Below, in pieces: positions 9,911 to 48,657 of a DNA stretch of 64,000 nt. Position 1 is the stretch's first letter. Each line of letters opens with the position of its first letter. This stretch comes from Candidatus Ozemobacteraceae bacterium (lineage in GTDB: Bacteria; Muiribacteriota; Ozemobacteria; Ozemobacterales; Ozemobacteraceae), in contig OZ223236.1 of the NCBI GenBank assembly GCA_965140445.1, positions 3,650,498 to 3,714,497 on the forward strand. Direction: 5' to 3'. The notes beneath the pieces are model-generated. The model was given only the letters and a program-made list of their open reading frames with translations, was not told where the DNA came from and did no database searches. Made by a program: the position numbers and the translations under genes.

Positions 9911-9930
9911 TGCATACCTCGCCTTGCTGT

Positions 9931-10362: not shown

Positions 10363-10472
10363 GGGCGCTATTCTATTAGTTAATCCTTTTCAATTCAAGT
10401 TTTTTATGGTTTAGCACGAACTACTTTTAAAACAGATAGAATTTTCTTCAGCTTTATAAAAAAAATCCTTGT

Positions 10473-11597
10473 TTAATACTTGTCGTGATACCTTTTTACA
10501 CGGTGATTTATCTGACAGGTGACTTCGTAAGTTATGGTTTTAAGTTTTTCTGCCCATTCATAGGCCGTGATTTCCTCTTTTCCTGACTTTCCGATTAAAA
10601 CCACTTCATCACCAACTTTAATATCCGTTTCCTGTCCAAGGTTGCACATGCTTTGATCCATGCACACCCTACCCACCACAGGATAAGATTTACCATTAAT
10701 CAAAACGCGTCCCATATTGGAAAAAAGACGATTAAAACCATCAGCATACCCGGCAGGAAAAGTTGCTATCCAGCTATCTTCTGGGGCAACCCAGGTTCTT
10801 CCATAGCCAATAGATGTTCCCTTAGAAACCTTTTTCAAAAAAGAAACTTTTGTTTTAAAACTTAAACCGGGTTCCAATACTATGGTTTGCGGTGTCTCTT
10901 CAGATGGATAAAATCCATAAATCATGATACCTGGTCTAACCATATCCAACCAGGATTCTGGATGAGCAAGAACACCTCCAGAGTTTGCGGCGTGAACCAA
11001 AGGTATCTTGACTCCAATTTCTTTTTGAATCTCTTCTACTCTTTTTTTAAATTTTTCGAGCTGTCTCTGCGTAAAGGCTTTATTTCCGTCGTCACTGACG
11101 GGAAGATGGGTCATAATGCCCCCAAGCAACAAATGGCTGCCTTCTTTAGCTATCTCTTTAGCAATTTCAATAGAGTCTTCTGGAGAAGCTCCAACTCTAC
11201 CCATACCTGTTTCAAGCTTTAAATGAACTTCAACTTTTTTACCTAGCTTTTCAGCAACCTTATTTAGTTCTTTTACATTTTCCAACTCACAGACAGCTAA
11301 AGCCAAATCATTATTTATAGCCTCTTCCATTTCTTCTAAAAAAACAGGACTAAATTTTAAAATTGGCAAGCGAATCCCAGCTTCTCGAAGCTCAATTCCT
11401 TCAGGGACTGTGGCAACTCCCAACCAGTCAACTCCTATATCTTCAGCCATTTTGGAAACTTGAATTGCCCCATGTCCATAGGCATTAGCCTTAACCGCAA
11501 TCAGTATTTTTCTGTCTTTTCCAATGGCCTTTTTGATACCAAGAATATTATTTTTAATATTTTGTAGATGAACCTGAGCATGAGTTTGATAAAGCAT
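10473..11597 (-). CDS. alr: Alanine racemase
   Basis: PLP-lysine motif AVKANAYGHG and C-terminal VCMDQ motif. 374 aa. Confidence 0.8.
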   Translation of the reverse strand: MLYQTHAQVHLQNIKNNILGIKKAIGKDRKILIAVKANAYGHGAIQVSKMAEDIGVDWLGVATVPEGIELREAGIRLPILKFSPVFLEEMEEAINNDLALAVCELENVKELNKVAEKLGKKVEVHLKLETGMGRVGASPEDSIEIAKEIAKEGSHLLLGGIMTHLPVSDDGNKAFTQRQLEKFKKRVEEIQKEIGVKIPLVHAANSGGVLAHPESWLDMVRPGIMIYGFYPSEETPQTIVLEPGLSFKTKVSFLKKVSKGTSIGYGRTWVAPEDSWIATFPAGYADGFNRLFSNMGRVLINGKSYPVVGRVCMDQSMCNLGQETDIKVGDEVVLIGKSGKEEITAYEWAEKLKTITYEVTCQINHRVKRYHDKY

Positions 11598-11599
11598 TT

Positions 11600-12724
11600 T
11601 TATTCGTCCTCAACAACCACTTTCTGAACATAAGGTGAAGTGCTTAAAGCCAATAAAGCACCGTAACCGGGATAAAAAGAAATCTCATCTCCAACTTTAA
11701 TATCACGCTTACAATCTTCAACATCTAAAATCAAATGATCACTTGAGCCGCCAAGCACCTCAATACCTTCCTCAACAGGTTCAATGCCATCTACAACAAC
11801 ATCTTGCCGACCAATATTACAAATTACACGTTTTCTTTTGCCTCGATCTACGAATTCCTGGCTTCCACCAAACGCGTCTTGCCCACGATCACCAATCGGC
11901 ATGGATGGCTTAACTTCAGCCTCAATTACTTCAGCGACAGCTATTACTGTATCCTGACGAGTTCCTTCCCATGGGGATCGATCAATTACATTTCTTCCAA
12001 GAATAATTGCCTCACCAATGCGATAAAGATTTACTTCCCCTGGAAGCTTACCTTCTGACATTAATGGCAACCCGGAGCTGTTTCCTCCACAGATTATAGG
12101 CAATTCCAGTCCTGTTTTTTCCCGGCAAATCTTTGTAGTTTCTACCAATAGACTCATGTTTTCTTCAGAAGGCATAACTCCACCATAACAGGCGAGATTG
12201 CATCCAATTCCAACAATTTCTATTCCATTATATTTTGAAGCATTTTTTAAAAGTTCTACAGCCTTATCAGGCCATATACCTTCTCGCAAGTCTCCAACAT
12301 CTATCATAAGGATGACTTTGTGCTTTCTATTTTGTAAATCTGCTGCTTTAGCAAGAGCTTCAATGGTCTTAAGACTTGAATTAAGGCTATAATCAGCGTA
12401 GCGCACAACATTTTCTGCATCAGAAATTGCTGGAAGACGCAAAAGCAAAAATGGGCCTTTAAAACCAGCTTCCCGCAAACGAATAATATTCTCTATTCTT
12501 GAATCCGCAAGTAAATCAGCCCCTCCATCTACCATCGCTTTTGCGACAGCAGGATGAGCAGCAGTTACCTTTGTGACACATGCCAATTGAACACCATTGC
12601 TACGGCATTGGTCGGCAACGGCTTGAGTATTAGTTTTTATTCTTTCTGGATATATCTCTAGTCTTGGTGTCCTGTTAGACAACCTTACATTTTTTTTATA
12701 GTCTATCATTCCTGTTCTATCCAA
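11600..12724 (-). CDS. orr: Alanine-racemase-fold PLP enzyme, likely ornithine racemase
   Basis: Fold-type III racemase pattern (VTKV lysine region). Sits next to oraSE and the reactivase-like gene, as in the Clostridium sticklandii ornithine cluster. Confidence 0.6.
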   Translation of the reverse strand: MDRTGMIDYKKNVRLSNRTPRLEIYPERIKTNTQAVADQCRSNGVQLACVTKVTAAHPAVAKAMVDGGADLLADSRIENIIRLREAGFKGPFLLLRLPAISDAENVVRYADYSLNSSLKTIEALAKAADLQNRKHKVILMIDVGDLREGIWPDKAVELLKNASKYNGIEIVGIGCNLACYGGVMPSEENMSLLVETTKICREKTGLELPIICGGNSSGLPLMSEGKLPGEVNLYRIGEAIILGRNVIDRSPWEGTRQDTVIAVAEVIEAEVKPSMPIGDRGQDAFGGSQEFVDRGKRKRVICNIGRQDVVVDGIEPVEEGIEVLGGSSDHLILDVEDCKRDIKVGDEISFYPGYGALLALSTSPYVQKVVVEDE

Positions 12725-14040
12725 CTTTTAAAAGTGTTTTTAACCAGCTCCGGGTATTCTATAGAAATTGTTCCATAAGCAGAAAACAAATAGTTTGAGT
12801 CTAGAAGCACACGTGACTCTGGTCGAGGTAAAAGATACTTACCAGGGCCGGTGCAGACTGAGGATAAAATTTCAAGCCCACCTTTGACTCTTGTCAGAGC
12901 GCCACCGGTTCCAATAATCCACTTAATTGCAGATAAATCCTTACCTTTTACAACCTGCTTTTTACCAGATGGAGTAAATAAATCAGCCAATGTTCCGGCA
13001 TGTCTTCTAATTCCAAATTCAACAGCTTTTGAGCAAAGCCATCTTGTCATTTCTATCTCATTTTCAGAGGAAGGCATCGCTTTAACTTCTTGCTCACGAC
13101 TTGTATGATCGCTATCGTTTGCCATTTCCAAAATATTTGCTGCATTCACATATACACCAAGATCGCCTTCTACTGTCCTTTTGGCTCTTGGTTCAGGCTC
13201 AATTAGCTTATCGGAATATTCTGGACTTCCATCTGACACAGAGTGAACATCTGTAGTTGCTCCACCAACATCTATTACAAGAGCATCTCCACCAACTTCA
13301 GAAAAAATTTCTGTTGCTCTTAAAACTGCTGCTGGGGTCGGAATAATTTGCTTGTCAGTTAAACCTCTAAGCCGTTCCATACCTGGAGCATGGATAATGT
13401 TTTGAGAGAATAACTCCTGCATCTTTTCTCTTAGAGGCTCGACATTTAAGACATCCACATCTGGAAAGACATTTGGAGCAATCATCAGTTCAATTCCTGA
13501 TTTACTGAAGATTTTAGTCACGGCTCTTTTTAATGCTGAGTTTCCACAGTAGACAACGGGCACTCCTAAATCCATGCACGCTAGCTTAATCGCATTTTCA
13601 AGAATAACCTCTTTTGCGCCATATTCTACCCCACCCGAAAGCAGGATCATGTTTGGGTTAATCTCCTCAATTTCTTCCAGATCAAAAGCGGACAATTCTC
13701 CGGCGGTGACCATTTTTATGATTGCACCAGCTCCAAGGCTGGCTTCTCTTGCGGCTCTGGCAGTCATATTATAGGTAAGACCATGAACAGTAACCCTTAG
13801 CCCCCCTGCCGCAGAGCTATTGGCAAACACTTCAACATTGTCAGTATTGAGACCGCTTGTCTTTTCAAGGTCTTCAATTGCGGCTGCAACCCCAATGCCA
13901 ACATTGCCCTCAGCGACAGTAGTAGGAGAGAATCCCTGCGCTACGTGCTTTAAAGTATTTTGTGGAGTTTTTACAAATCCGTTTGCTTTGGTAATTGTAC
14001 TCCCGACTTCAAGAGTGAGAATATCTATTGCTTTATTCAT
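12706..14040 (-). CDS. GlmL/MutL-family protein (putative aminomutase reactivase/chaperone)
   Basis: ASKHA-like ATPase pattern (LTLEVGSTITKANGF..., DVGGATTDVHS) typical of glutamate-mutase-associated GlmL. The same position is conserved in ornithine aminomutase clusters. Confidence 0.6.
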   Translation of the reverse strand: MNKAIDILTLEVGSTITKANGFVKTPQNTLKHVAQGFSPTTVAEGNVGIGVAAAIEDLEKTSGLNTDNVEVFANSSAAGGLRVTVHGLTYNMTARAAREASLGAGAIIKMVTAGELSAFDLEEIEEINPNMILLSGGVEYGAKEVILENAIKLACMDLGVPVVYCGNSALKRAVTKIFSKSGIELMIAPNVFPDVDVLNVEPLREKMQELFSQNIIHAPGMERLRGLTDKQIIPTPAAVLRATEIFSEVGGDALVIDVGGATTDVHSVSDGSPEYSDKLIEPEPRAKRTVEGDLGVYVNAANILEMANDSDHTSREQEVKAMPSSENEIEMTRWLCSKAVEFGIRRHAGTLADLFTPSGKKQVVKGKDLSAIKWIIGTGGALTRVKGGLEILSSVCTGPGKYLLPRPESRVLLDSNYLFSAYGTISIEYPELVKNTFKSWIEQE

Positions 14041-14085
14041 ATTTTTTGGGCATTTTTCAAATCAAAAAACGCTATAAATCAATTA

Positions 14086-14640
14086 TCAGCCAGTGATAAC
14101 CTTGCTAACACCATGTGTCATCCAAAGTCTACTTGCAAAATATACATTTCTTGGACCGCGTTTTTCATCATTGATCTTTTTGATAATTTTGAGGTCTAAT
14201 GCATTAATAGTCTTTATTGATTTAACATTCTGTGGATGAGTACAAACAAGAATTCTATTTGAAGGAATTAACCTGAATGCCTCTTCAAGCTCTCTTTTAC
14301 CAACTTCAAGTGCATAGCCTTTTCCCCATGCTTCCTGGCAAAGAGCAAAAGCAATTTCATACTCATTATCGCCAATTCCAGCAAAATCGCAATGGATAAT
14401 TCCGCCGTAACCAATGGGTTTGCCTGTAGCTCTATCACAAAGAGTGCCAAGCCCTATCATTTCATCTTCTTTTGCGAAGTATTTTTCAATAAACGCTCTG
14501 CTCTCTTCTTCGTTAAGAGCTTTGCCAGTGAGTAAATACTCCATAACTTCTTTTTTGCCAAGAATTTCATTGTACATGAAATCAAAATCCTCAGCTTTGT
14601 AACTTCTAAGTAATAATCTTTCTGTTTCAAGTTTTCGCAT
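14086..14640 (-). CDS. GNAT family N-acetyltransferase (RimJ/RimL-like)
   Basis: ERLLLRSYK start region and GNAT core. The ORF track extends to 14655, but a hairpin overlaps that. The ATG giving MRKLETERLLL is the more likely start. Confidence 0.6.
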   Translation of the reverse strand: MRKLETERLLLRSYKAEDFDFMYNEILGKKEVMEYLLTGKALNEEESRAFIEKYFAKEDEMIGLGTLCDRATGKPIGYGGIIHCDFAGIGDNEYEIAFALCQEAWGKGYALEVGKRELEEAFRLIPSNRILVCTHPQNVKSIKTINALDLKIIKKINDEKRGPRNVYFASRLWMTHGVSKVITG

Positions 14641-14642
14641 AA

Positions 14643-14675
14643 AAGAAAGGAGCATCAGGGCAAAGCCCTGATGCC
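14643..14675 (-). terminator. GC-rich hairpin plus T-tract between oraE and the GNAT gene (putative intrinsic terminator/attenuator)
   Basis: On the minus strand catcagggc-ttt-gccctgatg is followed by CTCCTTTCTTTT. Confidence 0.4.
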
Positions 14676-14698
14676 TTAACCTCCATCAAAATTTCATT

Positions 14699-16900
14699 CT
14701 AGATACTTCCACGCTGTTTCAGTATTTTTACAATAGAATCCACAACCTGGATACCTTTTGTTCCGCGGCCAAAGCCGTCATCCATGCCACATTCCTTGGC
14801 GATTTCTCTTGTAACCTGAGTTCCTCCAGAAATTAGAATAATTTTATCTCTTATTCCTTTTTCTTTGCAAAGTTCATCAAGTTTTCGCATGTTATCTCTG
14901 TGAACATCATTGTGGGAAATAATAGTGCTAATTAAAATAGCTTGAGAGCCAGTTTCAATCGCAGCGTCAACCATTTTTCCTATCGGAGCTGAAGTTCCCA
15001 TGTAATGGTATTTAACTCCGTATTTTTCGATTCCACCGTGTTTAATATCAAGAATTTCGCGCATTCCTACAGAATGTTCGTCTTCTCCAACTGTACCGGC
15101 AACGACTTTTAATCCAATTTTCTTAATCCCGGCGCGAATTTCTTCCTCTGGGAGGATTATCTCTTTTGGCGGTATTTTTAGAGTGCTTTTATCAATAGCA
15201 AAATCAACTTTTCCCTTAACTTCAAGGAAAGTTCCTTCTGACGGATGCATTACCTGGGCATTAATAACTTCTGGGTCACGAAGTCCCATCTTTTTGGCAA
15301 CTTCAAGAGCCGCAACCTTTGCAACTTCAATTTCTTCCGGAAGAAACAGCTGAATAAGAATATTACCGTCGCCAGCCCATTCAGTTTCAGGTTTTATCAT
15401 TCCACCAGTTCTGAAATCTCTGGTTTTTTCCAAACGAAGGTTGCAATTGTCAGTATCGTCTATCTCATCAATGTAATCTATTTTTTCAGGGTTACAAATT
15501 GTACATCCGCCAATTGGATCACAAGGTTTTTTATACAGCTCAACGGCTTTGTTCTTGCCAAAAGTGCTACAAACAGGTGCTAAATAGTCATCTTCGCGCT
15601 CTATTATCGAATCTGCTCCCACGCCGCCCTTTCCATCGCGTGCAATTCCATCGCCGCTTCTTTCAGGATAACTGGCAGAATCAACAAAGAAACCTTTTTC
15701 TACTGCAGCAAAATAGCCACCAACTTCAAGGATTTCTTCCAGGAAGCAGATTGATTTTTCCTTGATATCGCGAACCATTTCACCTAAGGGGCCTTCTCTA
15801 TCAAGCTTTACAAGTTGCTTAATTCCATCGAGGGCTACGAAGGTCTGCTTTGCAGTCTCAATCCCTCTGATGTTATTGTAATGCCAGGGCACATTGCGTC
15901 CTTCGTCAGGAGTAATTGTACTCTGAATATCAGCCTTTGTAAGAGCAGAAATCAAAGTGTCAATCACATGAGTTCTGGTTGCTTCTTCAATATCAGCTTC
16001 AATGTATCTGGTATTTTGCTGAGCTCTAAACTTAAACTCATCAAAAATATCTCTTAATGCTACCGCATAAGGCAAGTCATACCAAAGTTTAGGGGAAGGA
16101 GGAGCACATGGAGGAACTGTCGACAATCCGATATGATCTTTTGGCATTCCACAGCCTACAGAGAAAGCGGAGTTCAAGCCATGCTGAACTAATAGCTCAG
16201 GCATAACTGACCAGCCCTCTTTTGCTGTAGCATTAGCATTATGAGCTCCATCGATCTGGAATATCTCAGCATCAGCCATAACCTTTTTTGCGCTAGCTGC
16301 ATCAACGAAAGATCTATACATGTTTACATTTCTGTATAAAACATTGTATTGAGGGTCCTGATGTGCGCCATTCACGCCTTCTTCAGCAAAAAGAACAGCA
16401 ACTTCCGGGCCTGCAACTCCTGATACGTATGAGTGAAAGTTAATAGGTCTTCCTACTTCTTCTTCTATAAGGTCACAGGCTTTCCTTGAAGCTCTAATCT
16501 GTTTGCGGGTAATTGGAACCCCTCCAACCCCTTCAGGAGTCCCTTCCAGGAGACCGTCAATGTGACTCTGGCCTGTGGTTCTAATAACCATAATATGGTC
16601 TGCGCCATGCCAGGCAGCCATTCGCATTCTGCGAATGTCATCTTCAAAGCGACCAGATGCGATTTCTGTAGTAATAACTGGTTTAGGCTGAGGATCAATA
16701 TTATCAAAATATTTTGCGGCCGGAAGAGGAACCGAATTTTTGAGTGGTTCAGCCATGTCTTTGTAATGAAATTTATGGGCTTTATATCCACCGGGAACTT
16801 CTTTACGCCATGTCCAGCCTTTTCTAGGTGGATGATACTTATCAAGGTCGTTAAGAATTTCTTCTATATTAATCTTCTTTTTAGGATCTAATTTTTGCAT
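14699..16900 (-). CDS. oraE: D-ornithine 4,5-aminomutase subunit E (PLP and B12-binding)
   Basis: 733 aa. C-terminal B12-binding DxHxxG motif (GEDEHSVG). Adjacent to a ~116-aa oraS-like gene. Confidence 0.8.
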   Translation of the reverse strand: MQKLDPKKKINIEEILNDLDKYHPPRKGWTWRKEVPGGYKAHKFHYKDMAEPLKNSVPLPAAKYFDNIDPQPKPVITTEIASGRFEDDIRRMRMAAWHGADHIMVIRTTGQSHIDGLLEGTPEGVGGVPITRKQIRASRKACDLIEEEVGRPINFHSYVSGVAGPEVAVLFAEEGVNGAHQDPQYNVLYRNVNMYRSFVDAASAKKVMADAEIFQIDGAHNANATAKEGWSVMPELLVQHGLNSAFSVGCGMPKDHIGLSTVPPCAPPSPKLWYDLPYAVALRDIFDEFKFRAQQNTRYIEADIEEATRTHVIDTLISALTKADIQSTITPDEGRNVPWHYNNIRGIETAKQTFVALDGIKQLVKLDREGPLGEMVRDIKEKSICFLEEILEVGGYFAAVEKGFFVDSASYPERSGDGIARDGKGGVGADSIIEREDDYLAPVCSTFGKNKAVELYKKPCDPIGGCTICNPEKIDYIDEIDDTDNCNLRLEKTRDFRTGGMIKPETEWAGDGNILIQLFLPEEIEVAKVAALEVAKKMGLRDPEVINAQVMHPSEGTFLEVKGKVDFAIDKSTLKIPPKEIILPEEEIRAGIKKIGLKVVAGTVGEDEHSVGMREILDIKHGGIEKYGVKYHYMGTSAPIGKMVDAAIETGSQAILISTIISHNDVHRDNMRKLDELCKEKGIRDKIILISGGTQVTREIAKECGMDDGFGRGTKGIQVVDSIVKILKQRGSI

Positions 16901-16921
16901 ACTTTTTTCCTCCGGCGGCCA

Positions 16922-17272
16922 TTAAAAAAGGCCATCCAAAACGGCTGCATCCTGATTTATTTTTGCAGCAGCAGCTCGAATATCAATGCCTTCTTTTTCA
17001 GAAAGCTTTAGCAAAACATGGCCAGCGCCTTTTCCAAGGAGCCCAGCTTCATTAATTTTACTAACTACGCCCTGAGAGGTAACTGAATCAACTCCCATGC
17101 GCAAAAGCACAGATCTTTCGATTGAAGGTGAAGTATACTTCTTTCCATAATCTACCATTGGCTCAACAACTTTGTTACAAAGTTCCCAAAAGCGAGCCTT
17201 AAGCTGTTCATCAGTCAGCTTATGCAATTCCTGGCGACGAGCTTCAAATTTCTTTATTCTGTCTTCACTCAT
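16922..17272 (-). CDS. oraS: D-ornithine 4,5-aminomutase subunit S
   Basis: 116 aa, immediately upstream of oraE. Size and position match OraS. Confidence 0.7.
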   Translation of the reverse strand: MSEDRIKKFEARRQELHKLTDEQLKARFWELCNKVVEPMVDYGKKYTSPSIERSVLLRMGVDSVTSQGVVSKINEAGLLGKGAGHVLLKLSEKEGIDIRAAAAKINQDAAVLDGLF

Positions 17273-17380
17273 ACCATTTTCCTTTCCTTGAACGTGAAAT
17301 TCATAATCGAAAATTTACCGCTTTTAGAAGGATTTTGCTACTTTTTTCTTTAAGTCAAACCACAAGAGTTGGACTATCCC

Positions 17381-20095
17381 TTACCCATTCCTGCTATTAA
17401 CTGTAGAATTTTTTGCACCATCCTTGTTCTCATCCTTAAAGTTTAAAAGGTTTTCAAACCCAGCTTTATCAGTAACATGAGGCAAAACAAGCTCCAGATT
17501 AGACTTTTCCAACTTAATTAGATTAGCCAGAGATTGATCCATAGTCTGCATAAACTCTTTTGATGAAGTTTGCATAACCGAAGGAATCTGTTCAGCCTTT
17601 GCTTCTTTAATTAGATTCTTCACTGCATGATTACAGATTAAAAGTTCATATGCAAGAGCTCTGCCCTTTCTATCAGATCTCGGGATAAGTTTCTGGGAAA
17701 CAATTGCTCTCAAGACTCCCGCTAGTTCAAGCCTTACCTGCTCCTGAAAGTCTGCGGGAAAAGCTCCAATAATTCGATTTATACTTTCCCCAGCACTAAT
17801 TGTGTGCAGTGTTGAAAAAACCAGATGTCCTGTTTCAGCTGCAGTCAAAGCCAATTTGATTGTTTCTGGATCACGCATTTCACCAACGAGAATAATATCT
17901 GGATCTTCTCTCAAAGCGGATTTAAGGGCTTGAGCAAATGAATGGGTATGTGTTCCCAGTTCTCGTTGATTAATACTACAACGCTTATGTAAATGGACAA
18001 ATTCAATCGGATCTTCAATAGTAAGTATGTGTTCAAATCTTTTTCGGTTAATTTCATCAACCATTGACGCCATAGTTGTTGATTTGCCAGAACCGGTTGG
18101 ACCAGTTACAAGAACCAGCCCCTGACGATTATCGCAGATTTTCTCAAAAACACTTCTTGGAAGTCCCAATTCTTCAAAACTAGGTATGTTTGATGGAATC
18201 AAGCGAAAAATTCCACTTAATCCATGCCTTTGCTTGAATATATTTGCTCTGAAGCGCCCCACGTGCTTTACTTCGTGAGAAAGATCGACTTCCCACTCTT
18301 TTTCAAACTTTTTTCTCTGCTCTTCATTTAAAAGAGTAGAAAATAATTGTCCAGCCTTCTCTTGATCTACTGAAGGAAGATTTGTCCTTATTAACTCTCC
18401 GTGAATTCTAAACATTGGAGGCAAACCTACGTTCAAATGTAAATCGGACCCCTTCATTTCTTTAAGCTGGGACAAAAGGTCATCAATAGACCTATATTCA
18501 GATAAAGGCACTATGGGACGGTCTTCAAAAACAATATTTTCTGGATCAAAAGAAGCTAAATCTACTTTTTCATTGGAAAGAATCTTCACAATTTGATCAG
18601 ATCTCAGCTGATGCAAAAAGGAAACAAACTTCTCAATTTCAACTTCAGATAAGGTTACAAGCATCTGGAGGACACTCGAAAACGCTTTAAATCCTAAGTT
18701 TTTAAGCGTTTTTTCACTCCAAAATGACAGGTTCTTTTCTTTAGAAAACAGTTGAATTAATAATGGTTTCACAACTTTTTCAGGAGTCATGCTGCTTAAA
18801 CCACTTAAAATTGCATTTCTAACAGATAATGCACCGTCGTTAAAGTTCAAAATAAGCATATCCACAACATACTCAAGATCAAGCTTACAAAGAGCTTTTG
18901 CAGCCCAAACTCTAACATTTGGATCAAGATGCTTATCAACAAGATTCATTAAAGATCTTGCTGCCAATGGGTCTCTTCCCTCACCAAGCGCTTTACATGC
19001 CCAGTGAACCTTATCAAGATTTTTACTGTTTAGTGCTCTAATTAACTCTTCTCTGGCCCTTGGTAAGAGATGAGAAAGTGTATGACAAGCCAGATGTCGG
19101 ATAACCCAGACAGGGTCAGTAAGAGCTTCTACAAGAATTCTAATTCCTTCTTGATCTGGATTTTGCCCTAATGCTTTTAAAGCATAATATCTTTCATCTG
19201 GAACATCGCTTGTCAACATTTTCTTAAAAAACTTTGTGCTCTTTTCTCCAAGAATTTTACCAATGATGACAATCAATTCATCCTTCAATTCTGGCCCTTT
19301 GGTTTTCATCAGGGCAAGAGCTTCTTTTAGAGTCTCTTCACCTCTTCTGGCTAAAACATAAGAAGCCTGATATCTCATTAAAGGCGAGCTTTCAAACATT
19401 CCTGCAAATAAAAGCCCTAATCCCTTTTCACCGGGCAAGTATTCAAGTGCGGCCATTGCATATAATCTTACGGTTGGATCTTTGGACAACAATAGCTTTC
19501 GAATCTGCTTAAAAGCTTTATCACCACTAATATCTATAAGTAATTTAAGGGCCCAATATTTTTCGTGCAAATTACCCTTTGCAAAAACCTTCCTTATTGC
19601 AACTACCAACTGCTCGCCATGTGGAACCAGTACGCGATTCAAATGTCTTCTTAAAGCGAAGCTTGGGTTGACCATCTGGCGAATTAAAAAATCAAGCGAC
19701 TCAATTCCTTCCAGTTTCAAAATAAGATCAACTGAACGAATTTTAACGTCATCCTTCTCAGGCTTATTCAATATTTCTTTTAATATGCTGACTTCAAGAT
19801 GTCCGGTGTCTCCAAGAATGTAGAAAACCCTATCCCTTGCAGGGTATTCAGCATGGTTTAAAACAGCCTTTAAAGGTTCAACAACCTTTTCAATATTCCT
19901 TGCCAGTATTGCTGAAGACAATTCTTGAATCTCATCATCAGGAATAACAAGGCATTTATAAATTAGAAATAACAAGAATTGGTCATTTGAAATATCCGAA
20001 GCTTGCTTTAATAGTTCTCTTACATCAACTTTAAGCCCATTTTCTACTGCCAGCTTTAACTTGGCAAACTTTTGCCCTGGGGTTAATATTCCCAT
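17381..20095 (-). CDS. Fusion protein: N-terminal HEAT/PBS-lyase-like repeat region (~520 aa) + C-terminal PilT-type type IV pilus retraction ATPase
   Basis: The C-terminal 350 aa carry Walker A GPTGSGKSTT, the Asp box, the His box and PilT motifs. The N-terminal half is repetitive alpha-helical HEAT-like units. Confidence 0.8.
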   Translation of the reverse strand: MGILTPGQKFAKLKLAVENGLKVDVRELLKQASDISNDQFLLFLIYKCLVIPDDEIQELSSAILARNIEKVVEPLKAVLNHAEYPARDRVFYILGDTGHLEVSILKEILNKPEKDDVKIRSVDLILKLEGIESLDFLIRQMVNPSFALRRHLNRVLVPHGEQLVVAIRKVFAKGNLHEKYWALKLLIDISGDKAFKQIRKLLLSKDPTVRLYAMAALEYLPGEKGLGLLFAGMFESSPLMRYQASYVLARRGEETLKEALALMKTKGPELKDELIVIIGKILGEKSTKFFKKMLTSDVPDERYYALKALGQNPDQEGIRILVEALTDPVWVIRHLACHTLSHLLPRAREELIRALNSKNLDKVHWACKALGEGRDPLAARSLMNLVDKHLDPNVRVWAAKALCKLDLEYVVDMLILNFNDGALSVRNAILSGLSSMTPEKVVKPLLIQLFSKEKNLSFWSEKTLKNLGFKAFSSVLQMLVTLSEVEIEKFVSFLHQLRSDQIVKILSNEKVDLASFDPENIVFEDRPIVPLSEYRSIDDLLSQLKEMKGSDLHLNVGLPPMFRIHGELIRTNLPSVDQEKAGQLFSTLLNEEQRKKFEKEWEVDLSHEVKHVGRFRANIFKQRHGLSGIFRLIPSNIPSFEELGLPRSVFEKICDNRQGLVLVTGPTGSGKSTTMASMVDEINRKRFEHILTIEDPIEFVHLHKRCSINQRELGTHTHSFAQALKSALREDPDIILVGEMRDPETIKLALTAAETGHLVFSTLHTISAGESINRIIGAFPADFQEQVRLELAGVLRAIVSQKLIPRSDRKGRALAYELLICNHAVKNLIKEAKAEQIPSVMQTSSKEFMQTMDQSLANLIKLEKSNLELVLPHVTDKAGFENLLNFKDENKDGAKNSTVNSRNG

Positions 20096-20189
20096 AATTT
20101 GTCCCTCAACCCATTTATTTTTTTAACCCAATAATTCTGAATTCAACGGTGCCAGATTAACAATTGGCAAACGTCGGTAAATCTATTTC

Positions 20190-20588
20190 TCATCTATCGA
20201 TAGTAATATTAATTGAACAGGTTTCATCAAACTTAAATATCTCAGCAAAAACTTTCTCAGAAAGTTGAATAGCCAATTTTTTTTCAAATCCAATTTCCAG
20301 ATTAATACTCTCAGGAAAGTTTTCAATTTGATCGCCCAAATCCACCCCAAATTGTCGAAAGATAAAAAGGGCATTGGTCCTTTCATCTGCGCTCAGATTC
20401 ATAGTTGGTAAATCAAAATACAATCCGCTTTCTTCATCAAAAGCAAATTGAACAAATTTTTCAGTCTCTGGCTCTTCAAAAATTACAAACCAGCCATCAC
20501 CAGAATTTCCACAAACTAAATCAATCGCAGAAGAAATACGATCTATCATTTTTTCCACCTGTTTACATTTAGATTTAAAACAATTCAA
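20190..20588 (-). CDS. Hypothetical protein
   Basis: 132-aa ORF with no recognised domain. Confidence 0.4.
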   Translation of the reverse strand: MNCFKSKCKQVEKMIDRISSAIDLVCGNSGDGWFVIFEEPETEKFVQFAFDEESGLYFDLPTMNLSADERTNALFIFRQFGVDLGDQIENFPESINLEIGFEKKLAIQLSEKVFAEIFKFDETCSINITIDR

Positions 20589-20743
20589 AATGAATGTTAA
20601 ATGAAGATTGTTTTAGATACAAACTTTCAAAAACATTTTTTACCCAATTTTCAAAGGAGGTATTATTTTTCCGATTTTTGGGGTACAATAGACAAAACAT
20701 ATTTTTCTACTGGTTGTAGGAATTCTTACGAGGTGGACATTAC

Positions 20744-22270: not shown

Positions 22271-22283
22271 AATAATAACAAAA

Positions 22284-22327
22284 AGCCCGAAGAATGAGCT
22301 TTCATATCATTCTTCGGGCTTTTTTAT
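22284..22327. terminator. Bidirectional terminator between convergent genes
   Basis: agcccgaagaatga...tcattcttcgggct hairpin followed by TTTTTT. Confidence 0.6.
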
Positions 22328-23191
22328 TTAATCAAAATCCCCATCATCATCTTCATGCGGATAATTCTTTTCCGCACACTCGGGACAAATCCCGTGACTA
22401 AATTTTGCCATAGAATGTTCCGAGATATAGTTTTCAACTCGATCCCAATAGCCTTTGTCATCCCTAATCTTTTTGCAGTGTGAGCAAATAGGAATAATAC
22501 CCTTAAGAGTTTTAATCTCCTCCATAGTATTCCTAAGCTCTTTAATTAAGTTTTCCTTTTCGGCATTAGATTCCTCTAATTCTTTAACAACCTTTTCCAC
22601 GGCTTTTGTTGAATTATTTAAGCCTTCCTGGACCATTCCCCTTGATTTCTCCATTACAAAGGAAAAAAGAAAAATAATCAAATAGGCTGAAACACTTCTA
22701 ACTCTTACATTAAAATCATATTTTGCAACAAAACTAAAATGCTTATCAAAAAAGAAAACTGTAAGCATGACCAGCAATAAACACCAGGCAATTCTGCTCC
22801 CATTTTTTTCTCCCAGAAGGAAAACCGAAATTATTGGAAAAGTGAAGGACCAAACATAACCAGAATTAGAAGATCCCCCAGAAATAAGCAAAAAACAATA
22901 CAATAAAAAGCCTACAGAAACACCCATTATAGAAAATAGCCTATAGTTTTTTGTTTTTCTAAGCAAAATCAAAAATAATAACAAAACGATTGAACAGGAA
23001 AAATCTACAAAAGCCAATTGATAATTTCCCTGATAGCTAGCAATGGGTGCCAGAATCAGAAGAGTAGCCATGGAAAATAAAAGGGTTAAATTCAACATCA
23101 GAGTCCGTCTCAAAGCTTCTATTTCATGCTTCTTTGACAAACCTGAAGAAATAAAATCCCAGAACCATTCTTTTAAAGTTTTCAGAGACAT
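22328..23191 (-). CDS. Membrane sensor (multi-TM N-terminus) - coiled coil - C-terminal Cys4 zinc-ribbon-like module (paralog A)
   Basis: Five or six predicted TM helices. C-terminus LKGIIPICSHCKKIRDDKGYWDRVENYISEHSMAKFSHGICPECAEKNYPHEDDDGDFD. Confidence 0.75.
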   Translation of the reverse strand: MSLKTLKEWFWDFISSGLSKKHEIEALRRTLMLNLTLLFSMATLLILAPIASYQGNYQLAFVDFSCSIVLLLFLILLRKTKNYRLFSIMGVSVGFLLYCFLLISGGSSNSGYVWSFTFPIISVFLLGEKNGSRIAWCLLLVMLTVFFFDKHFSFVAKYDFNVRVRSVSAYLIIFLFSFVMEKSRGMVQEGLNNSTKAVEKVVKELEESNAEKENLIKELRNTMEEIKTLKGIIPICSHCKKIRDDKGYWDRVENYISEHSMAKFSHGICPECAEKNYPHEDDDGDFD

Positions 23192-23224
23192 AGCGTTTTC
23201 TGGTATCTTTTCTCTTGATTAATT

Positions 23225-24079
23225 TTAATCATCATCAAAGTCCTCTTCAGAGTATAGCTCTTTAATGCAGTCTGGACAAATACCATGACTAAATTGTGCC
23301 TCAGTATGGTCGGTAATAAAATTCTCGACTCTATCCCAGAAGCCCTCATCGTTTCTTATTTTTTTACAGCACGAGCACATTGGTAAAATTCCTTGTAAGG
23401 TGCTGACCTCATTCATTAATTCCTTTAACTCATGAATGAGATTTTCCTTAACTGCTTGAGCTTTTTCAAGTTCTGTAACAGACTTTTCCATTTCGACTTT
23501 AGACTTATTCAAGTTCTTTTGAATAGAATCTCTCAATTCTTCCATCACAGCAGCAAAAAGAAAGATTAAAAAATATGCCGACAATGCTCTAATTGCAATG
23601 TTGAAATCATAACTCTCCAAATAAGGAATTTCATTTCCCGCGAAAAAAACAATACCAACAAAACTAAACAAAACAAGACTAAAAAAAGCGCCACGCTGGT
23701 TGCCAAGCAAAAAAATAGAAATCAAAGGGTAAGTAAAAATCCAAACATGTGAAGCTCCACCAACACCACCTGTACCTGATAAATAAGCAAAAAAGACACC
23801 CGTTAGCGCTACTGCAAAGGTCGAACAGAATACATAATTGTGAGTTTTCTTATGATAAAAAAATAGAAAAAGTAAAATACCTAAAGTAATTGAATCAGCA
23901 ACTACAACTCTGTAGCTACCCTGAAAGTATGATAAAAGACCTAAAACAAAAATAAAAAAGCCGCCAAGAAAAACCAGAATATTAAACATAAAGACACGTC
24001 TAAGTTCTTCAATGTTATTTTTATCCTTAAGGCCTCCCGAAAAGAGATACCAAATTATTTTTTTTGATTCATTCTTCAT
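23225..24079 (-). CDS. Membrane sensor - coiled coil - Cys4 module (paralog B, tandem duplicate of A)
   Basis: Same architecture. C-terminus LQGILPMCSCCKKIRNDEGFWDRVENFITDHTEAQFSHGICPDCIKELYSEEDFDDD. Confidence 0.75.
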   Translation of the reverse strand: MKNESKKIIWYLFSGGLKDKNNIEELRRVFMFNILVFLGGFFIFVLGLLSYFQGSYRVVVADSITLGILLFLFFYHKKTHNYVFCSTFAVALTGVFFAYLSGTGGVGGASHVWIFTYPLISIFLLGNQRGAFFSLVLFSFVGIVFFAGNEIPYLESYDFNIAIRALSAYFLIFLFAAVMEELRDSIQKNLNKSKVEMEKSVTELEKAQAVKENLIHELKELMNEVSTLQGILPMCSCCKKIRNDEGFWDRVENFITDHTEAQFSHGICPDCIKELYSEEDFDDD

Positions 24080-44071: not shown

Positions 44072-44704
44072 CTATCCTTCTATTTCTAAATCACCGAACT
44101 CATTTTTCAAGCAATCAGAGCAGATTCCATGCGAAAAAACAGTTTCAGAATTCATTGTAATGTATTCTTCTAATGTAAACCAAGTGCCATCTACATTTTG
44201 AATTTTCCGACAATATGAACAAATAGACAACAATTCAGATAAATATTTAATTTTTTTCTTAGCTTCTTTCAGGTTTTTATTTGTTCTAATTAATTCTTTA
44301 GTCGTTTTTGCCAATTCATTATTTAAAACTGAAATCTGTCGGATAATACTATCAGTACGTTCCGTTTCAGGTATTCCAATCAGCAACCAATCTTTTTCCA
44401 TTTTAAAAATTTCACAATATAAAGGTATGGATAATGGATTTACAAAGTCTAAACTGATTTTCTTTTCTTCAGGAAACTGACTTATAAGTTCCTTTAGTTT
44501 ATTAACAGTTGCTGAAGTCAAAATAGTTGAGATACTATCACCTGGCTTAATATTACTTCCAGAAGTCTTTTTAAGATTTAAACTACTGGAATTAAGAATA
44601 TAATCTTCACTAAAAGAAAAAAAAGCAATTTTACTTGTGGAACTAACGTATTCAAGCACATAAGAAAAAATGGCTCCCTCATTTAATGTCACAATAAAAA
44701 CCAC
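44072..44704 (-). CDS. Small cytoplasmic protein: unknown N-terminal domain - coiled coil - Cys4 module (paralog F)
   Basis: C-terminus LSELLSICSYCRKIQNVDGTWFTLEEYITMNSETVFSHGICSDCLKNEFGDLEIEG. Overlaps the upstream B12-binding protein gene by 16 nt. Confidence 0.75.
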   Translation of the reverse strand: MVFIVTLNEGAIFSYVLEYVSSTSKIAFFSFSEDYILNSSSLNLKKTSGSNIKPGDSISTILTSATVNKLKELISQFPEEKKISLDFVNPLSIPLYCEIFKMEKDWLLIGIPETERTDSIIRQISVLNNELAKTTKELIRTNKNLKEAKKKIKYLSELLSICSYCRKIQNVDGTWFTLEEYITMNSETVFSHGICSDCLKNEFGDLEIEG

Positions 44705-45804
44705 TCTCTTGCTAGTTTTTTTGCTTCTATGACATCATTTGCAAAACCATTTGCCCCAATTCTCTCCCATAGCTTGGGATTCTCATTAAAGCTTCGTCCC
44801 CCAACCATTATTTTAGTGTCTTTTAAAGCCTCTTGATTCTTTATTTGAAAAATCATCTGCTGCACCACTGTTAGATTAAAAGGCATCGTCACAGAAACAG
44901 CCAGAATGTTTGGTTTAAATTCGTAAGATAAGTTTAAAACGTCTTGAACAGGAGTATTTGCACCAAGGTATCTAACTGTCCATCCATCGTATTCCAAAAT
45001 ATCAGCAATCATCCACGCCCCTAACTCATGAAATTCGTTAGAACATGCGGTTACAATTGCCCTCTTATTGTTTGGACATGATTTAAAATCAAGTTGAGCT
45101 AACCAGGCCATAACTCTATTAACAATTGCTGAAGTAAGATGCTCCTGAGCGACCGAGATTTCGCCTCGCTCCCAGAGACAGCCTATCTCGTACATTGCCT
45201 GTTGCAAAACATGGATATAAAATTCTTCCAAGTCAGCAATTGAATGAACACTTCCTTTTGCCAGGTTTAGACTTCCTAAGTGGTCTGCCTTTAGCAAAAA
45301 CCGCATAAGTTCATTTTTGCAACTGCTCCATCTTCCATTTGTGCATGAGCTTTGGATTAAAGGACTTCTTGCTAGATCCACAAAGTCTTCATGATGAGCA
45401 ATCATCCAATTGTAAACATCGAGAATCTCATCTTTAAGTTCTATAGGAAACAATTGCTCTACAGCCACTTTCCAAGCTTTTAACTCAATAGGAAAATACT
45501 CAAAGGAAAACCCATGGTTGGAGTATGTTTTATAAACCCATAATACAGTGCGACTCAACAATTCAAAATTATTAAGCGAAAAAACCGATGTCATAAAAGC
45601 AGCATGGTTTTTGTGGTTATCCAGCATTTTTTGCAAATGATTAGAGCCGATGAGAGAAATCACATTTTTGTTTTGCGACAAATTGCAATCTACTGATTCA
45701 ATTAGCTTTGGACAAAGTATCTCATACTCTTCGGCAGCCTTTTGGGAAACTTTTCTTATTGAGCGAGTGGTTTCTATCAAGCTTTCAATAGACAACATGG
45801 CCAT
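44689..45804 (-). CDS. Cobalamin-binding protein (helical N-terminus + B12-binding_2 four-helix bundle + B12-binding Rossmann domain). No DNA-binding or catalytic domain.
   Basis: DxHxxG-type motif SNEFHELG followed by the Rossmann-like pattern LGANTPVQDV...ILAVSV. Confidence 0.7.
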   Translation of the reverse strand: MAMLSIESLIETTRSIRKVSQKAAEEYEILCPKLIESVDCNLSQNKNVISLIGSNHLQKMLDNHKNHAAFMTSVFSLNNFELLSRTVLWVYKTYSNHGFSFEYFPIELKAWKVAVEQLFPIELKDEILDVYNWMIAHHEDFVDLARSPLIQSSCTNGRWSSCKNELMRFLLKADHLGSLNLAKGSVHSIADLEEFYIHVLQQAMYEIGCLWERGEISVAQEHLTSAIVNRVMAWLAQLDFKSCPNNKRAIVTACSNEFHELGAWMIADILEYDGWTVRYLGANTPVQDVLNLSYEFKPNILAVSVTMPFNLTVVQQMIFQIKNQEALKDTKIMVGGRSFNENPKLWERIGANGFANDVIEAKKLAREWFLL

Positions 45805-45884
45805 GCTTACTCCTCTCGGGCAATTATCTATTAAGACTTTTCTATTTATTCATTTTATGATATCAGGAATCAAAATTTATGAAA

Positions 45885-45921
45885 ACAAAAAAACGGCACA
45901 AATAATTGTGCCGTTTTTTTG
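45885..45921. terminator. Terminator hairpin downstream of ortB
   Basis: cggcacaa-ataatt-gtgccg flanked by A7 and T7. Confidence 0.55.
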
Positions 45922-45933
45922 TTTTCAGGTTGT

Positions 45934-47331
45934 TTAACCCAGAATACCATTTAGCCATTCTAACGGCATCTTGATATCTTCGGCAATAAACTTTCGATCA
46001 GCTTCTGACCATTGATCAATCGGCACATTTTTCAATGCATTTTTCACATAAGATCTGCGCAACTTTTCCATTTCTTGTCTCTGACCTTTAACCTGGGAAA
46101 GTTTTTCTGGAATAACAATACTTTTTCCATTTATTCCTTCCGTAGGGTTTCCTCGACGAACTTCAATCCCCATTTTTCTTGCAAAAGCAAGCTGGGCATT
46201 GTGGTGTTTTCCTGCGCCAGTGTATTCAGTCTCCTGAACGACAATAATTTGATCTCGATCCATTTCTCTAGCCAGCGCCACCGCTCCCGTAACACTAGTG
46301 TTTCCGGCTGGCCCGCGTTCTATTCCCTCTAGCTTTGCAAGCAATTCAGTTATGTAAAAAACTTCACCCTGATTAACTAGAATGTAATCATCCATGTATC
46401 TCAGACTTCTTGCGGCATTTCGTGGAACGTCTACTCTATCCGGCCAGGTGGCAAATGGAACGCCAAAACCTGTGTGCCCAGTGGTAAAAGATTTTTTGTT
46501 AAAATCTTTGTCTGAAGCCATATGAAGACCACTCAAGTCAACGGAGCAAGCCACAATCTTAGAGTTTGCTCCAGATTGAATTAACCCCCTCGCAGTACCT
46601 GTCAGGTTTCCCCCACCGGCATGAGTAACAACAACTGCATCAGGATCTTTTCCATACCTGGCTCGAACCTGACAAGCAATCTCCGCCCCAAGAGTTTCAA
46701 CACCTTTTATTCCAAAGGGTGTATAGAGTGAAGCATTGAAAAAACCCGTTTCTTCCAGAGTTAATAATAAACAATAAAAAAGTTCGGGCCCGACAGACAG
46801 TTTTATAACCTCTGCCCCAAATGCTTCGCACTTTCTACCCTTCTCGACGATTTCAGGTTGCCCAATTCCCATTGAATCAAAAACTTCTTGAAGAATAATG
46901 CATTTCAATTTTCTTTGAGCCGCCTGGGAGGCAACCGCTGCCCCATAGTTTCCAGAAGTGGCAGCTATGACTCCAGAGTATCCTTTTTCTTTCGCTACAA
47001 AAGCTGATATGGAGGCTCGCCTGGCTTTAAAGCTTCCAGAGGCATTTGCAGCTTCATCTTTTAAAAGGATTGTTGCACCTTTTCCTTCAGGACAACCAGC
47101 TCTAACTGCTTCAGTTAAATTGGTTAACTCAAACAAAGGAGTACTGCCAACTTTGGTTTCAGCCTGAATTTTAGCAATGTCTTCAAGCTTAAAACCAGCA
47201 TCATTCATCATTCTTTCGTAATCGAATGCCAGTGCTCCAAGCGTATAATCATCGTAATCAATCCCCATTGAGGACTTCATTATTTCATTTTTCCGAGCCA
47301 TTACAGCCTGATAGGAAGTATCTCTTTTCAT
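45934..47331 (-). CDS. ortB: 2-amino-4-ketopentanoate thiolase beta subunit (PLP-dependent, Trp-synthase-beta fold)
   Basis: PLP fold-type II lysine region ASGSFKARRA. About 465 aa. Follows small ortA and ord. Confidence 0.7.
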   Translation of the reverse strand: MKRDTSYQAVMARKNEIMKSSMGIDYDDYTLGALAFDYERMMNDAGFKLEDIAKIQAETKVGSTPLFELTNLTEAVRAGCPEGKGATILLKDEAANASGSFKARRASISAFVAKEKGYSGVIAATSGNYGAAVASQAAQRKLKCIILQEVFDSMGIGQPEIVEKGRKCEAFGAEVIKLSVGPELFYCLLLTLEETGFFNASLYTPFGIKGVETLGAEIACQVRARYGKDPDAVVVTHAGGGNLTGTARGLIQSGANSKIVACSVDLSGLHMASDKDFNKKSFTTGHTGFGVPFATWPDRVDVPRNAARSLRYMDDYILVNQGEVFYITELLAKLEGIERGPAGNTSVTGAVALAREMDRDQIIVVQETEYTGAGKHHNAQLAFARKMGIEVRRGNPTEGINGKSIVIPEKLSQVKGQRQEMEKLRRSYVKNALKNVPIDQWSEADRKFIAEDIKMPLEWLNGILG

Positions 47332-47615
47332 ACTTGTCCTCCCAAACCAATATTTAAAAGCTCTTCAACTGTTTCACCAAAATCATGGCGATAACATGGC
47401 GAAATAATTTTTAATTCACCCTCAACGGTTCTTCCAATTAGGGTTTTTATAGCTACAATATCTCCAATTTTTGAGTCTGACTGCAAAAAGCCAGACATTT
47501 TCATTATGTATGGGGTGCACCTGGTATCTTCTGGAACTTGCGGAGCCCTCTGATCTGGTGTCAAAATAATTTTCTCAATTTCGACCCAAGTGCCAGCTTT
47601 CACACTTTCAGACAT
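47328..47615 (-). CDS. ortA: 2-amino-4-ketopentanoate thiolase alpha subunit
   Basis: 95-aa ORF overlapping ortB by 4 nt, located between ord and ortB as in known ornithine clusters. Confidence 0.6.
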   Translation of the reverse strand: MSESVKAGTWVEIEKIILTPDQRAPQVPEDTRCTPYIMKMSGFLQSDSKIGDIVAIKTLIGRTVEGELKIISPCYRHDFGETVEELLNIGLGGQV

Positions 47616-47616
47616 C

Positions 47617-48657
47617 TTAGAAGCCTCTTTCGTATGCCGATTTTCCCATAAGACATGCAGGAATAGGAAGATCTGACATCCTCTTTAAACCAGGTGAAGC
47701 TTTTAAAACTATTGGAATCATATTTACAGCCGCTGCCATAGTGCCTTTACCGCCAGGGATTTCAGGGCTAATGCTCATATTTATTTCTGGATCACCAATA
47801 ATTTTTATATAGTCACCAGTTTCAACATTTTCTGTTCCTGGATGAATTTGCTGTGGATGAATCAATTTAATAACCTCTTCACCTTTTCTATAGCCAATTC
47901 CAATGTGTCTACAGCCAGCAACCATACCAGGCTTAACTTTTACAACTGGCGTTTCTCTTTCAGTGTTTGAAATAATAGGCTCACGAGTTTCTTCAATATT
48001 ATCAACTTCTAATCCAATTGCATCTGAAATCATTTTTATTGATTCAGGGAAGCCAATATGCCCAACGATTGAACCATCTTTTAAACCTGCTTCAAACTCC
48101 TCAGGTGTAGATCCTACGCCCTGTGTTTCCATAACCGTTTTTCCAAAAGGAGAAAGGTCATTGATTCTGCTAGCTTCAATTCTCTTTACATTTAAACATG
48201 CACCAGAAAGATTAATAATAAGCTGATCAAGGACAAAACCAGGATTAACACCAGTTCCAAGAAGTGTTACACCATTTTTTACAGCAAGCTCATTAAGTTG
48301 TCTTGCTAATTCAGGCTCTTGCGCTTGCGGGCATGCCATTTCCTCTGCAATAGTAATTACATTAATTCCTTTTTCCAAAACAGTCTTCAGACTGTCAAAA
48401 ACATTTTTAGTAAAAGAGTGAATAGCGTGAAGACAAACATCTACTTTATCTTTATCAAGAATTTCATCAGGGGAGGCATAAATCTTTACGCCAACATTTT
48501 TCCCTAAATTAAGAACTTCACCGACGTCTTTTCCAACGATTTCCTCACGTCTTTCAATAACACCAACAACTTCAATTCCTTCTTTTTCAAGCATGAGTTT
48601 TACCATGCCGCTTCCCATTGCTCCGAAGCCCCATTGAACGACTCTGATTGGTTTCAT
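47617..48657 (-). CDS. ord: 2,4-diaminopentanoate dehydrogenase (DapB-like NAD(P) oxidoreductase)
   Basis: N-terminal Rossmann VVQWGFGAMG. About 346 aa. Synteny with ortAB. Confidence 0.7.
   Translation of the reverse strand: MKPIRVVQWGFGAMGSGMVKLMLEKEGIEVVGVIERREEIVGKDVGEVLNLGKNVGVKIYASPDEILDKDKVDVCLHAIHSFTKNVFDSLKTVLEKGINVITIAEEMACPQAQEPELARQLNELAVKNGVTLLGTGVNPGFVLDQLIINLSGACLNVKRIEASRINDLSPFGKTVMETQGVGSTPEEFEAGLKDGSIVGHIGFPESIKMISDAIGLEVDNIEETREPIISNTERETPVVKVKPGMVAGCRHIGIGYRKGEEVIKLIHPQQIHPGTENVETGDYIKIIGDPEINMSISPEIPGGKGTMAAAVNMIPIVLKASPGLKRMSDLPIPACLMGKSAYERGF

Follow-up and report, generated by a model that had tools for sequence, protein, structure and literature searches.

A gene of Candidatus Ozemobacteraceae bacterium joins a long solenoid of HEAT repeats to a complete PilT-family ATPase in a single polypeptide. 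It lies on the minus strand of the 64,000-nt stretch of DNA analysed here (contig OZ223236.1 of assembly GCA_965140445.1, positions 3,650,498 to 3,714,497; hereafter the window, in whose numbering all positions are given). Sequence comparisons indicate that the fusion is genuine and under selection, with arm and motor co-conserved, and that the arm belongs to a distinct, reusable sub-family of HEAT repeats, which we call W-HEAT. We lean towards reading the protein as an active PilT-type motor whose solenoid would serve as a built-in docking or regulatory adaptor.

Architecture of the fusion protein

The gene is a single uninterrupted open reading frame (ORF) of 904 aa (17381-20095, minus strand) beginning with an ATG at 20095-20093, and the G+C content of the gene and its flanks is even (0.35-0.40). 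Residues 1-506 are HEAT repeats, residues 507-536 form a linker of fixed length and residues 537-868 make up a complete PilT-family ATPase. A preliminary description, drawn from the sequence alone, had proposed a HEAT array of about 520 aa followed by a complete PilT. That architecture is correct, since Pfam, the NCBIfam model TIGR01420, the motifs, structure matches, AlphaFold2 and Foldseek all agree on it. The features of the gene are listed below (AF2, AlphaFold2; pLDDT, predicted local distance difference test; bits and profile positions refer to the W-HEAT super-repeat model described further on).

17381..20095, minus: whole gene, W-HEAT-PilT fusion, 904 aa, stop codon at 17381-17383
20102..20107, minus: Shine-Dalgarno-like GAGGGA, 6 nt before the ATG, read from the sequence
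19820..20095, minus: N-terminal helical cap, residues 1-92; AF2 helices from H6-18 to H87-96, pLDDT 72-92; conserved within Ozemobacteraceae
19595..19819, minus: W-HEAT super-repeat 1 (degenerate), residues 93-167; 14.5 bits, profile 14-88
19322..19573, minus: W-HEAT super-repeat 2, residues 175-258; KYWALKLL (W181); 47.9 bits, profile 4-87
19031..19270, minus: W-HEAT super-repeat 3, residues 276-355; DPVWVIR (W330); 51.7 bits, profile 13-92
18758..19027, minus: W-HEAT super-repeat 4, residues 357-446; VHWACKAL (W365); 18.3 bits, profile 2-89
18578..18745, minus: W-HEAT super-repeat 5 (partial) and C-terminal cap, residues 451-506; SFWSEKTLK (W459); 9.4 bits, profile 2-58
18488..18577, minus: linker, residues 507-536; invariant F516-D517-P518; 30 aa with zero indels in 10 orthologues; pLDDT <50 at 525-536
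17492..18487, minus: PilT-family ATPase, residues 537-868; N2/PAS-like and RecA-like C-terminal domains; TIGR01420; aligned to 5zfq over residues 536-880
18074..18103, minus: Walker A GPTGSGKSTT, residues 665-674; from the sequence, invariant in orthologues
18002..18022, minus: Asp box TIEDPIE, residues 692-698; from the sequence, invariant in orthologues
17870..17905, minus: Walker B DPDIILVGEMRD, residues 731-742; from the sequence, aligned with 5zfq and orthologues
17801..17833, minus: His box TGHLVFSTLHT, residues 755-765; from the sequence, aligned with 5zfq and orthologues
17603..17626, minus: AIRNLIRE-like motif AVKNLIKE, residues 824-831; aligned to AIRNLIRE of 5zfq
17384..17440, minus: variable polar C-terminal tail, residues 886-904; unalignable among orthologues, pLDDT <50

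The ATPase half matches Pfam T2SSE over residues 537-823 (E 3e-45) and scores 463.8 bits against TIGR01420, the NCBIfam PilT/PilU family, over residues 537-868 (profile positions 2-332 of 343; curated cut-off 319.1). The NCBIfam models for PilB, GspE, ComGA, VirB11 and TadA all fall far below their cut-offs for this protein. Its nearest solved structures are PilTs, namely Geobacter PilT4 (5zfq, E 6e-103), the P. aeruginosa protein (3jvu) and that of Aquifex (2ewv); PilT structures score 297-349 bits, and PilU (9n32) scores about 90 lower, at 257 bits. Walker A, the Asp box, Walker B and the His box each align to their counterpart in 5zfq with identical core residues. At the position of AIRNLIRE, the PilT-specific motif that separates PilT from PilU, the protein has AVKNLIKE, which differs by an I to V and two R to K substitutions. 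The domain can thus be assigned by sequence to the PilT type with all of its nucleotide-binding motifs intact, set in a protein that departs from the compact two-domain form of ~345 aa in having 536 residues ahead of the PilT core.

The N-terminal half was searched with the HEAT families PF13646 and PF03130, the check that the preliminary description had proposed, and with PF02985, and all three match there. HEAT_2 aligns in six stretches (E 3e-24; 85.4 bits against a gathering threshold of 27.7), the strongest of them at residues 290-370, HEAT reaches 42.8 bits against 23.5 (E 3e-11) and HEAT_PBS 28.1 bits against 20.9 (E 2e-6); no NCBIfam model covers the arm. AlphaFold2, run with 11 orthologues, predicts that residues 1-520 form a purely alpha-helical solenoid (pLDDT mostly 85-95), and Foldseek pairs this model with alphaRep, the PP2A A subunit and karyopherins.

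The arm carries a higher-order period of ~92 aa in which each super-repeat consists of three HEAT units, with the approximate signatures D-x-x-W-x-V-R-x-x-A-A, E-D-x-(K/R)-(Y/F)-W-A-x-K-x-L and R-x-Y-A-x-x-A-L-G. From 18 clean units we built a hidden Markov model (HMM) of 92 positions, which matches the window protein five times in register and generic HEAT proteins in out-of-register fragments only. The (Y/F)W-x-x-(K/R) motif recurs at 91-94 aa or multiples thereof in fused and stand-alone W-HEAT proteins, as against two isolated matches in 74 other HEAT proteins. W181 is near-invariant across phyla, and F458, W459, E461 and K462 are invariant across the orthologue family. As used here, W-HEAT is a label of our own for proteins with at least three in-register units of ~92 aa and motif spacing of 91-94 aa or multiples, not a curated family. 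The window protein has motifs at residues 180, 364 and 458 (spacing 184 and 94 aa) and, by a looser count, four full in-register units. These patterns argue for a distinct, reusable HEAT sub-family rather than generic HEAT, a finding that adds to the preliminary description.

Conservation and distribution of the fusion and its arm

Eleven proteins of 896-929 aa, taken from independent NCBI, ENA, JGI and Logan assemblies and in several cases named Candidatus Ozemobacteraceae, align end to end at 53-74% identity (one is cut by a contig end). Identity in this alignment is 46-68% over the arm and 72-85% over the ATPase. The same unbroken ORF recurs in ~30 independent assemblies from these four sources, assigned to Ca. 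Ozemobacteraceae and Riflebacteria, and the concern that a frameshift had run two genes together is not borne out. A scan of GTDB at one genome per species, with four close N-domain sequences as query and the window's own genome lying outside the fetched representatives, gave 15 loci, all Ozemobacter or Riflebacteria; at 14 of them a single unbroken ORF places Walker A near residue 665-690.

Two proteins called as PilTs of 467 and 438 aa in NCBI annotations of metagenome-assembled genomes (MAGs; P0314 and P0315) were tried as natural unfused PilTs and rejected. Their DNA contains uninterrupted fused ORFs of 973 and 932 aa (L061:4483-7404 and L062:4519-7317), which continue upstream for ~500 codons beyond the annotated starts, through the HEAT arm. 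Because these calls drop the ~500 arm codons, public gene calls under-report the fusion.

A deletion allele was seen in a MAG of Ca. Ozemobacter sp. (L016:5844-8162; P0009), the closest species-level relative, whose arm is 67% identical. An in-frame deletion of ~125 aa takes out Walker A, Asp box, Walker B and the greater part of the His box, joining ...IPSIV directly to HTISAGES..., but leaves the arm, PilT N-domain and C-terminus in place. The allele is found both in this NCBI MAG and in eight sequences that form one JGI cluster, all of one species.

On a wider scale, a HMMER scan of 1.84 billion representative proteins returned 50,822 matches, and architecture classes were assigned with our own profiles to the best 150 of these plus the query. 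Within this set 17 proteins carry the W-HEAT arm and 15 a different HEAT array, giving 32 HEAT-PilT fusions; a further 11 contain two PilTs in tandem, 69 are extended N-terminally in other ways and only 31 are of canonical length. Pfam confirms HEAT_2 together with T2SSE in five of the 15 fusions with the other array. By source name the W-HEAT fusions come from Riflebacteria, Wallbacteria and Cloacimonadota, and the others from Myxococcota and Acidobacteriota (Thermoanaerobaculia), so that HEAT-PilT fusions occur in at least five phyla under a database label that reads merely 'PilT/PilU family'. The fusion had been described as unusual, which holds against characterised PilTs but not against public metagenome data. 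Literature searches combining PilT with HEAT repeats gave nothing relevant, and no paper mentioning the fusion was found in the library searched.

An indicative neighbour-joining tree built on the PilT domains only places all 17 W-HEAT fusions in one clade of 20 tips and the 15 other HEAT-PilT fusions in a separate contiguous cluster. The first grouping suggests that arm and motor evolved together. Since fusions are spread over two PilT clades and several phyla, the architecture appears to be both recurrent and old. The tandem PilT-PilT proteins (P0060, P0061, P0063-P0066, P0068, P0078, P0079, P0085 and P0096) are ~540-1020 aa long with two cores each; eight of them group together in the same tree, and P0061 bears an N-terminal DUF4388.

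W-HEAT is also found apart from PilT. The best non-PilT matches to the window protein are stand-alone W-HEAT proteins of ~775 aa (P0016-P0023), which score 129-167 bits with the window protein alone as query, as against at most 81 bits for the next HEAT-only proteins. Their source names, Ca. Rifleibacterium and Ozemobacteraceae, are those of the window's own lineage. They surfaced in a word-indexed search with the N-domain profile, which missed distant fused relatives. The end of the stand-alone gene lies -55 to +11 nt from the start of dprA at 22 of the 24 metagenome loci with room downstream; these loci cover 31-94% protein identity, and four further contexts agree. The usual order is ybbR-W-HEAT-dprA-smg-topA (loci L005, L006, L012-L015 and L031-L059). 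At L006 the gene stands between pilM..pilO..secretin and dprA, an adjacency to pilMNOPQ that is confined to this lineage and absent at L056 (7 kb of upstream sequence), and at L005 a pilin gene lies ~9 kb upstream.

A third setting is a 1008-aa protein of Riflebacteria that couples W-HEAT to a class III nucleotide cyclase (Guanylate_cyc; L062:7387-10413, minus strand, and L061:1-2048, plus strand). It has four in-register units (249.9 bits), and the distance from its gene to the PilT fusion is 70 nt in L062 and 2.4 kb in L061. Other cyclases, of the GAF/PAS or HAMP types, occur near the fusion in L001 and L008. W-HEAT thus has ties to PilT, a cyclase and DprA, through gene fusions or an operon, and it behaves as a portable module, joined in a single phylum to effectors of different kinds.

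Genomic neighbourhood

The surroundings of the fusion in the window include the following genes.

16922..17272, minus: oraS (PF16552, E 2e-40), same strand as the fusion and 108 nt downstream of it; oraE comes next
10473..17272, minus: oraS, oraE, a GNAT gene, a mutL-like gene (PF13941) and two racemase-type genes
20190..20588, minus: ORF of 132 aa without a Pfam match, same strand as the fusion and 94 nt upstream of it
22328..23191 and 23225..24079, minus: adjacent paralogous membrane proteins with C-terminal cysteine motifs (CSHC/CSCC...GICPxC)
44689..48657, minus, ~27 kb away: 2,4-diaminopentanoate dehydrogenase, a PLP (pyridoxal phosphate) enzyme and a B12-binding protein

The downstream cluster oraS-oraE-mutL-racemase is real, as is the same-strand adjacency to oraS noted in the preliminary description, and the ornithine fermentation genes are split between two regions of the window. 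As a clue to function the adjacency had to be given up: no ora genes adjoin the fusion at any of ~20 related loci. We treat the link as incidental because it is unique to this genome, and the oraS neighbourhood probably is so. Predicted promoters and terminators are as numerous as shuffled sequence would lead one to expect, none falls between the fusion and oraS, and Rfam had no match in window positions 9000-24000. The 132-aa ORF is not beside the fusion at related loci. The cysteine motifs of the membrane pair resemble a small zinc-ribbon output, and the member at 22328-23191 matches MASE6 and MASE11.

All-against-all clustering of ORFs from 17 loci found no family common beyond close relatives. 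Absence of conserved neighbours is also typical of pilT genes. Genes of filament machines do occur near the fusion in relatives. In a MAG related to Ozemobacteraceae, the fusion is followed 1.8 kb downstream, on its own strand, by a cluster of a 428-aa T2SSE ATPase, two T2SSF proteins, a 125-aa ORF and an N-methyl pilin (L028:14603-18794), and at L004 a T2SSE/T2SSF pair lies ~6-8 kb upstream. A canonical PilT of 379 aa, 54% identical, is encoded in a Riflebacteria MAG; none was found in 870 kb of related loci, a negative that is uninformative.

Proposed role and comparison with known systems

With the domain identities, the intact motifs, the co-conservation of the halves and the reuse of W-HEAT established, a mechanism can be proposed for what the arm does. 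By analogy with the architecture of PilT, PilB and GspE, the PilT-type ATPase would assemble as a hexamer, and its ATPase and retraction activity, from which it would depolymerise type IV pili, are those that we infer for a PilT. The solenoid, attached through the 30-residue linker, would sit where PilB and GspE carry their N1 docking domains, and because each subunit of the hexamer carries one, the ring would bear six protein-binding arms. Most likely these arms serve as an adaptor and would bind a partner, be it a regulator or a component of the type IV filament machinery, and binding would target or gate the motor. The arm therefore probably decides where or when the motor engages the machine.

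Indirect support for this adaptor reading, in itself plausible, comes from the presence of W-HEAT on a cyclase and on a dprA-coupled protein, and the links to pili counted in its favour are the L028 cluster, the T2SSE/T2SSF pair of L004 and the pilM..pilO..secretin context of L006. The preliminary description had suggested that the HEAT arm tethers the motor to, or regulates it through, another complex; the same module on a cyclase and a dprA-coupled protein makes this plausible, and it is in that sense that we infer it here.

Several observations weigh against the adaptor. No gene is conserved beside the fusion across ~20 loci and no partner was identified, and the 64-kb window contains no type IV pilus genes. 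With its nucleotide-binding core deleted and its arm kept, the L016/P0009 copy either does without ATPase activity, its arm having a role that does not depend on it, or is decaying. The tree of PilT domains has no support values and is for that reason indicative only. The PilT half is modelled by AlphaFold2 at pLDDT ~30-45, a low confidence that follows from the shallow alignment of 11 sequences.

Two alternatives are variants of the same adaptor idea. The fusion could be a competence-specific motor, the retraction ATPase of a transformation pilus, with W-HEAT binding a component of DNA uptake and the stand-alone paralogue working with DprA on incoming DNA. The stand-alone gene abuts or overlaps dprA at 22 of 24 loci and in the four further contexts, and at L006 it stands between pilM-pilO-secretin and dprA; PilT-driven retraction is, moreover, needed for pilus-dependent DNA uptake in several bacteria. 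However, the order ybbR-(W-HEAT)-dprA-smg-topA is fixed within one lineage, so the adjacency may reflect inherited synteny, the pilMNOPQ adjacency is likewise limited to one lineage and missing at L056, dprA is never near the fused gene, and DprA is widespread in bacteria not known to transform. We regard this competence motor as rather unlikely. Somewhat lower still we place a role in signalling, in which W-HEAT would be an input that senses a partner or ligand and drives both the cyclase and an accessory PilT-like ATPase, leaving bulk retraction to a canonical PilT. The W-HEAT cyclase beside the fusion in two Riflebacteria genomes, the canonical 379-aa PilT of a Riflebacteria MAG and the arm retained by the ATPase-core deletion variant all fit such a role, but the cyclase adjacency is seen in 2 of ~20 contexts, the co-occurrence of fusion and canonical PilT in one genome is assumed, and no ligand-binding signature was found in the arm.

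The remaining explanations depart further from the adaptor. If the fusion were co-transcribed with oraS-oraE it could serve ornithine fermentation; the genes share a strand across a 108-nt gap with no terminator-like site from the stop at 17381 to the oraS start at 17272. Yet no related locus has ora genes by the fusion, L061 has two Ala_racemase-type genes ~4.5 kb downstream on the opposite strand and no aminomutase, and no biochemical rationale is apparent, which leaves this coupling highly improbable. Least credible of all, to the point of being negligible, is an assembly or annotation artefact joining two genes, given the continuous ORF in ~30 independent assemblies and conservation that spans the junction, with an invariant FDP and a fixed linker length.

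A broader form of the adaptor reading is more speculative, and we would not expect it to hold as stated. W-HEAT would be an adaptor module, not recognised before, of the apparatus for type IV pili and DNA uptake in Riflebacteria and allied candidate phyla, with one partner surface and three readers: the fused PilT motor, the fused cyclic-nucleotide synthase and the stand-alone DprA-coupled scaffold. In that case the fusion would record PilT docking in the manner of a Rosetta stone, and the matching PilT-docking interaction in model organisms, if any, would occur in trans.

The connections among retraction, second messengers and DNA uptake are debated in model bacteria, and the recurrence of the arm, on a cyclase and next to dprA, is a hint of such a link. 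How PilT is recruited to the pilus base, and how it is exchanged there with PilB, is to our knowledge little understood; PMC11580455 reviews regulators that act on PilB. Permanent attachment of PilT to a large protein-binding arm, as in this lineage, would offer a direct handle, as the arm's partner would reveal a docking or control point for retraction. Should the arm prove to be a mere lineage-specific localisation tag, the annotation would still be useful, as it corrects the plain 'PilT/PilU' label. The fusion is a real and well-conserved architectural variant of a known motor, widespread in uncultured phyla and unstudied, for which the proposed mechanism is plausible.

Among known systems, the studied PilTs (5zfq/6ojx, 3jvu and 2ewv) share with the fusion the whole PilT profile, both domains, the nucleotide-binding motifs and the AIRNLIRE-like helix. 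They are ~345-390 aa long with nothing before N2, whereas the fusion has 536 extra N-terminal residues, and its ATPase domain falls in a separate clade in which the arm is always present. PilB, GspE and MshE resemble it in placing a regulatory or docking domain N-terminal to an N2-CTD (C-terminal domain) motor core. That domain, however, is the small N1 (MshEN), which acts in docking and c-di-GMP (cyclic diguanylate) binding, while the fusion has a 500-residue solenoid without a Pfam match to MshEN, and it scores only 134 and 142.2 against the PilB and GspE cut-offs of 675.65 and 630.25.

A functional likeness is offered by SgmX of M. xanthus, a TPR protein needed for polar recruitment of PilB, for which no direct contact with PilB was detected (PMC11580455). 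Like the proposed arm, SgmX (with FrzS and SopA) is a helical-repeat scaffold governing where a pilus ATPase engages (PMC11580455). It acts in trans on PilB through TPR repeats, whereas the arm would act in cis on PilT through HEAT repeats. As a fold, the arm resembles CpcE/CpcF, NblB and alphaRep, its units of ~31 aa matching HEAT_PBS, HEAT_2 and alphaRep structures. Its phycobilin lyase and NblB scores nevertheless lie far below the cut-offs (44.6 against 300, 29.6 against 220 and 20.6 against 330), and generic HEAT proteins lack its 92-aa period and signature tryptophans. In overall architecture the protein matches the fusions of Myxococcota and Acidobacteriota (for example MDY0059554.1, MCK6507323.1 and MCM3875374.1), proteins of 814-1008 aa in which a HEAT_2 array precedes PilT. 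Neither the W motif nor the in-register super-repeat is present in their arms, and their PilT domains cluster apart in the tree, which suggests that these fusions arose independently or diverged very long ago.

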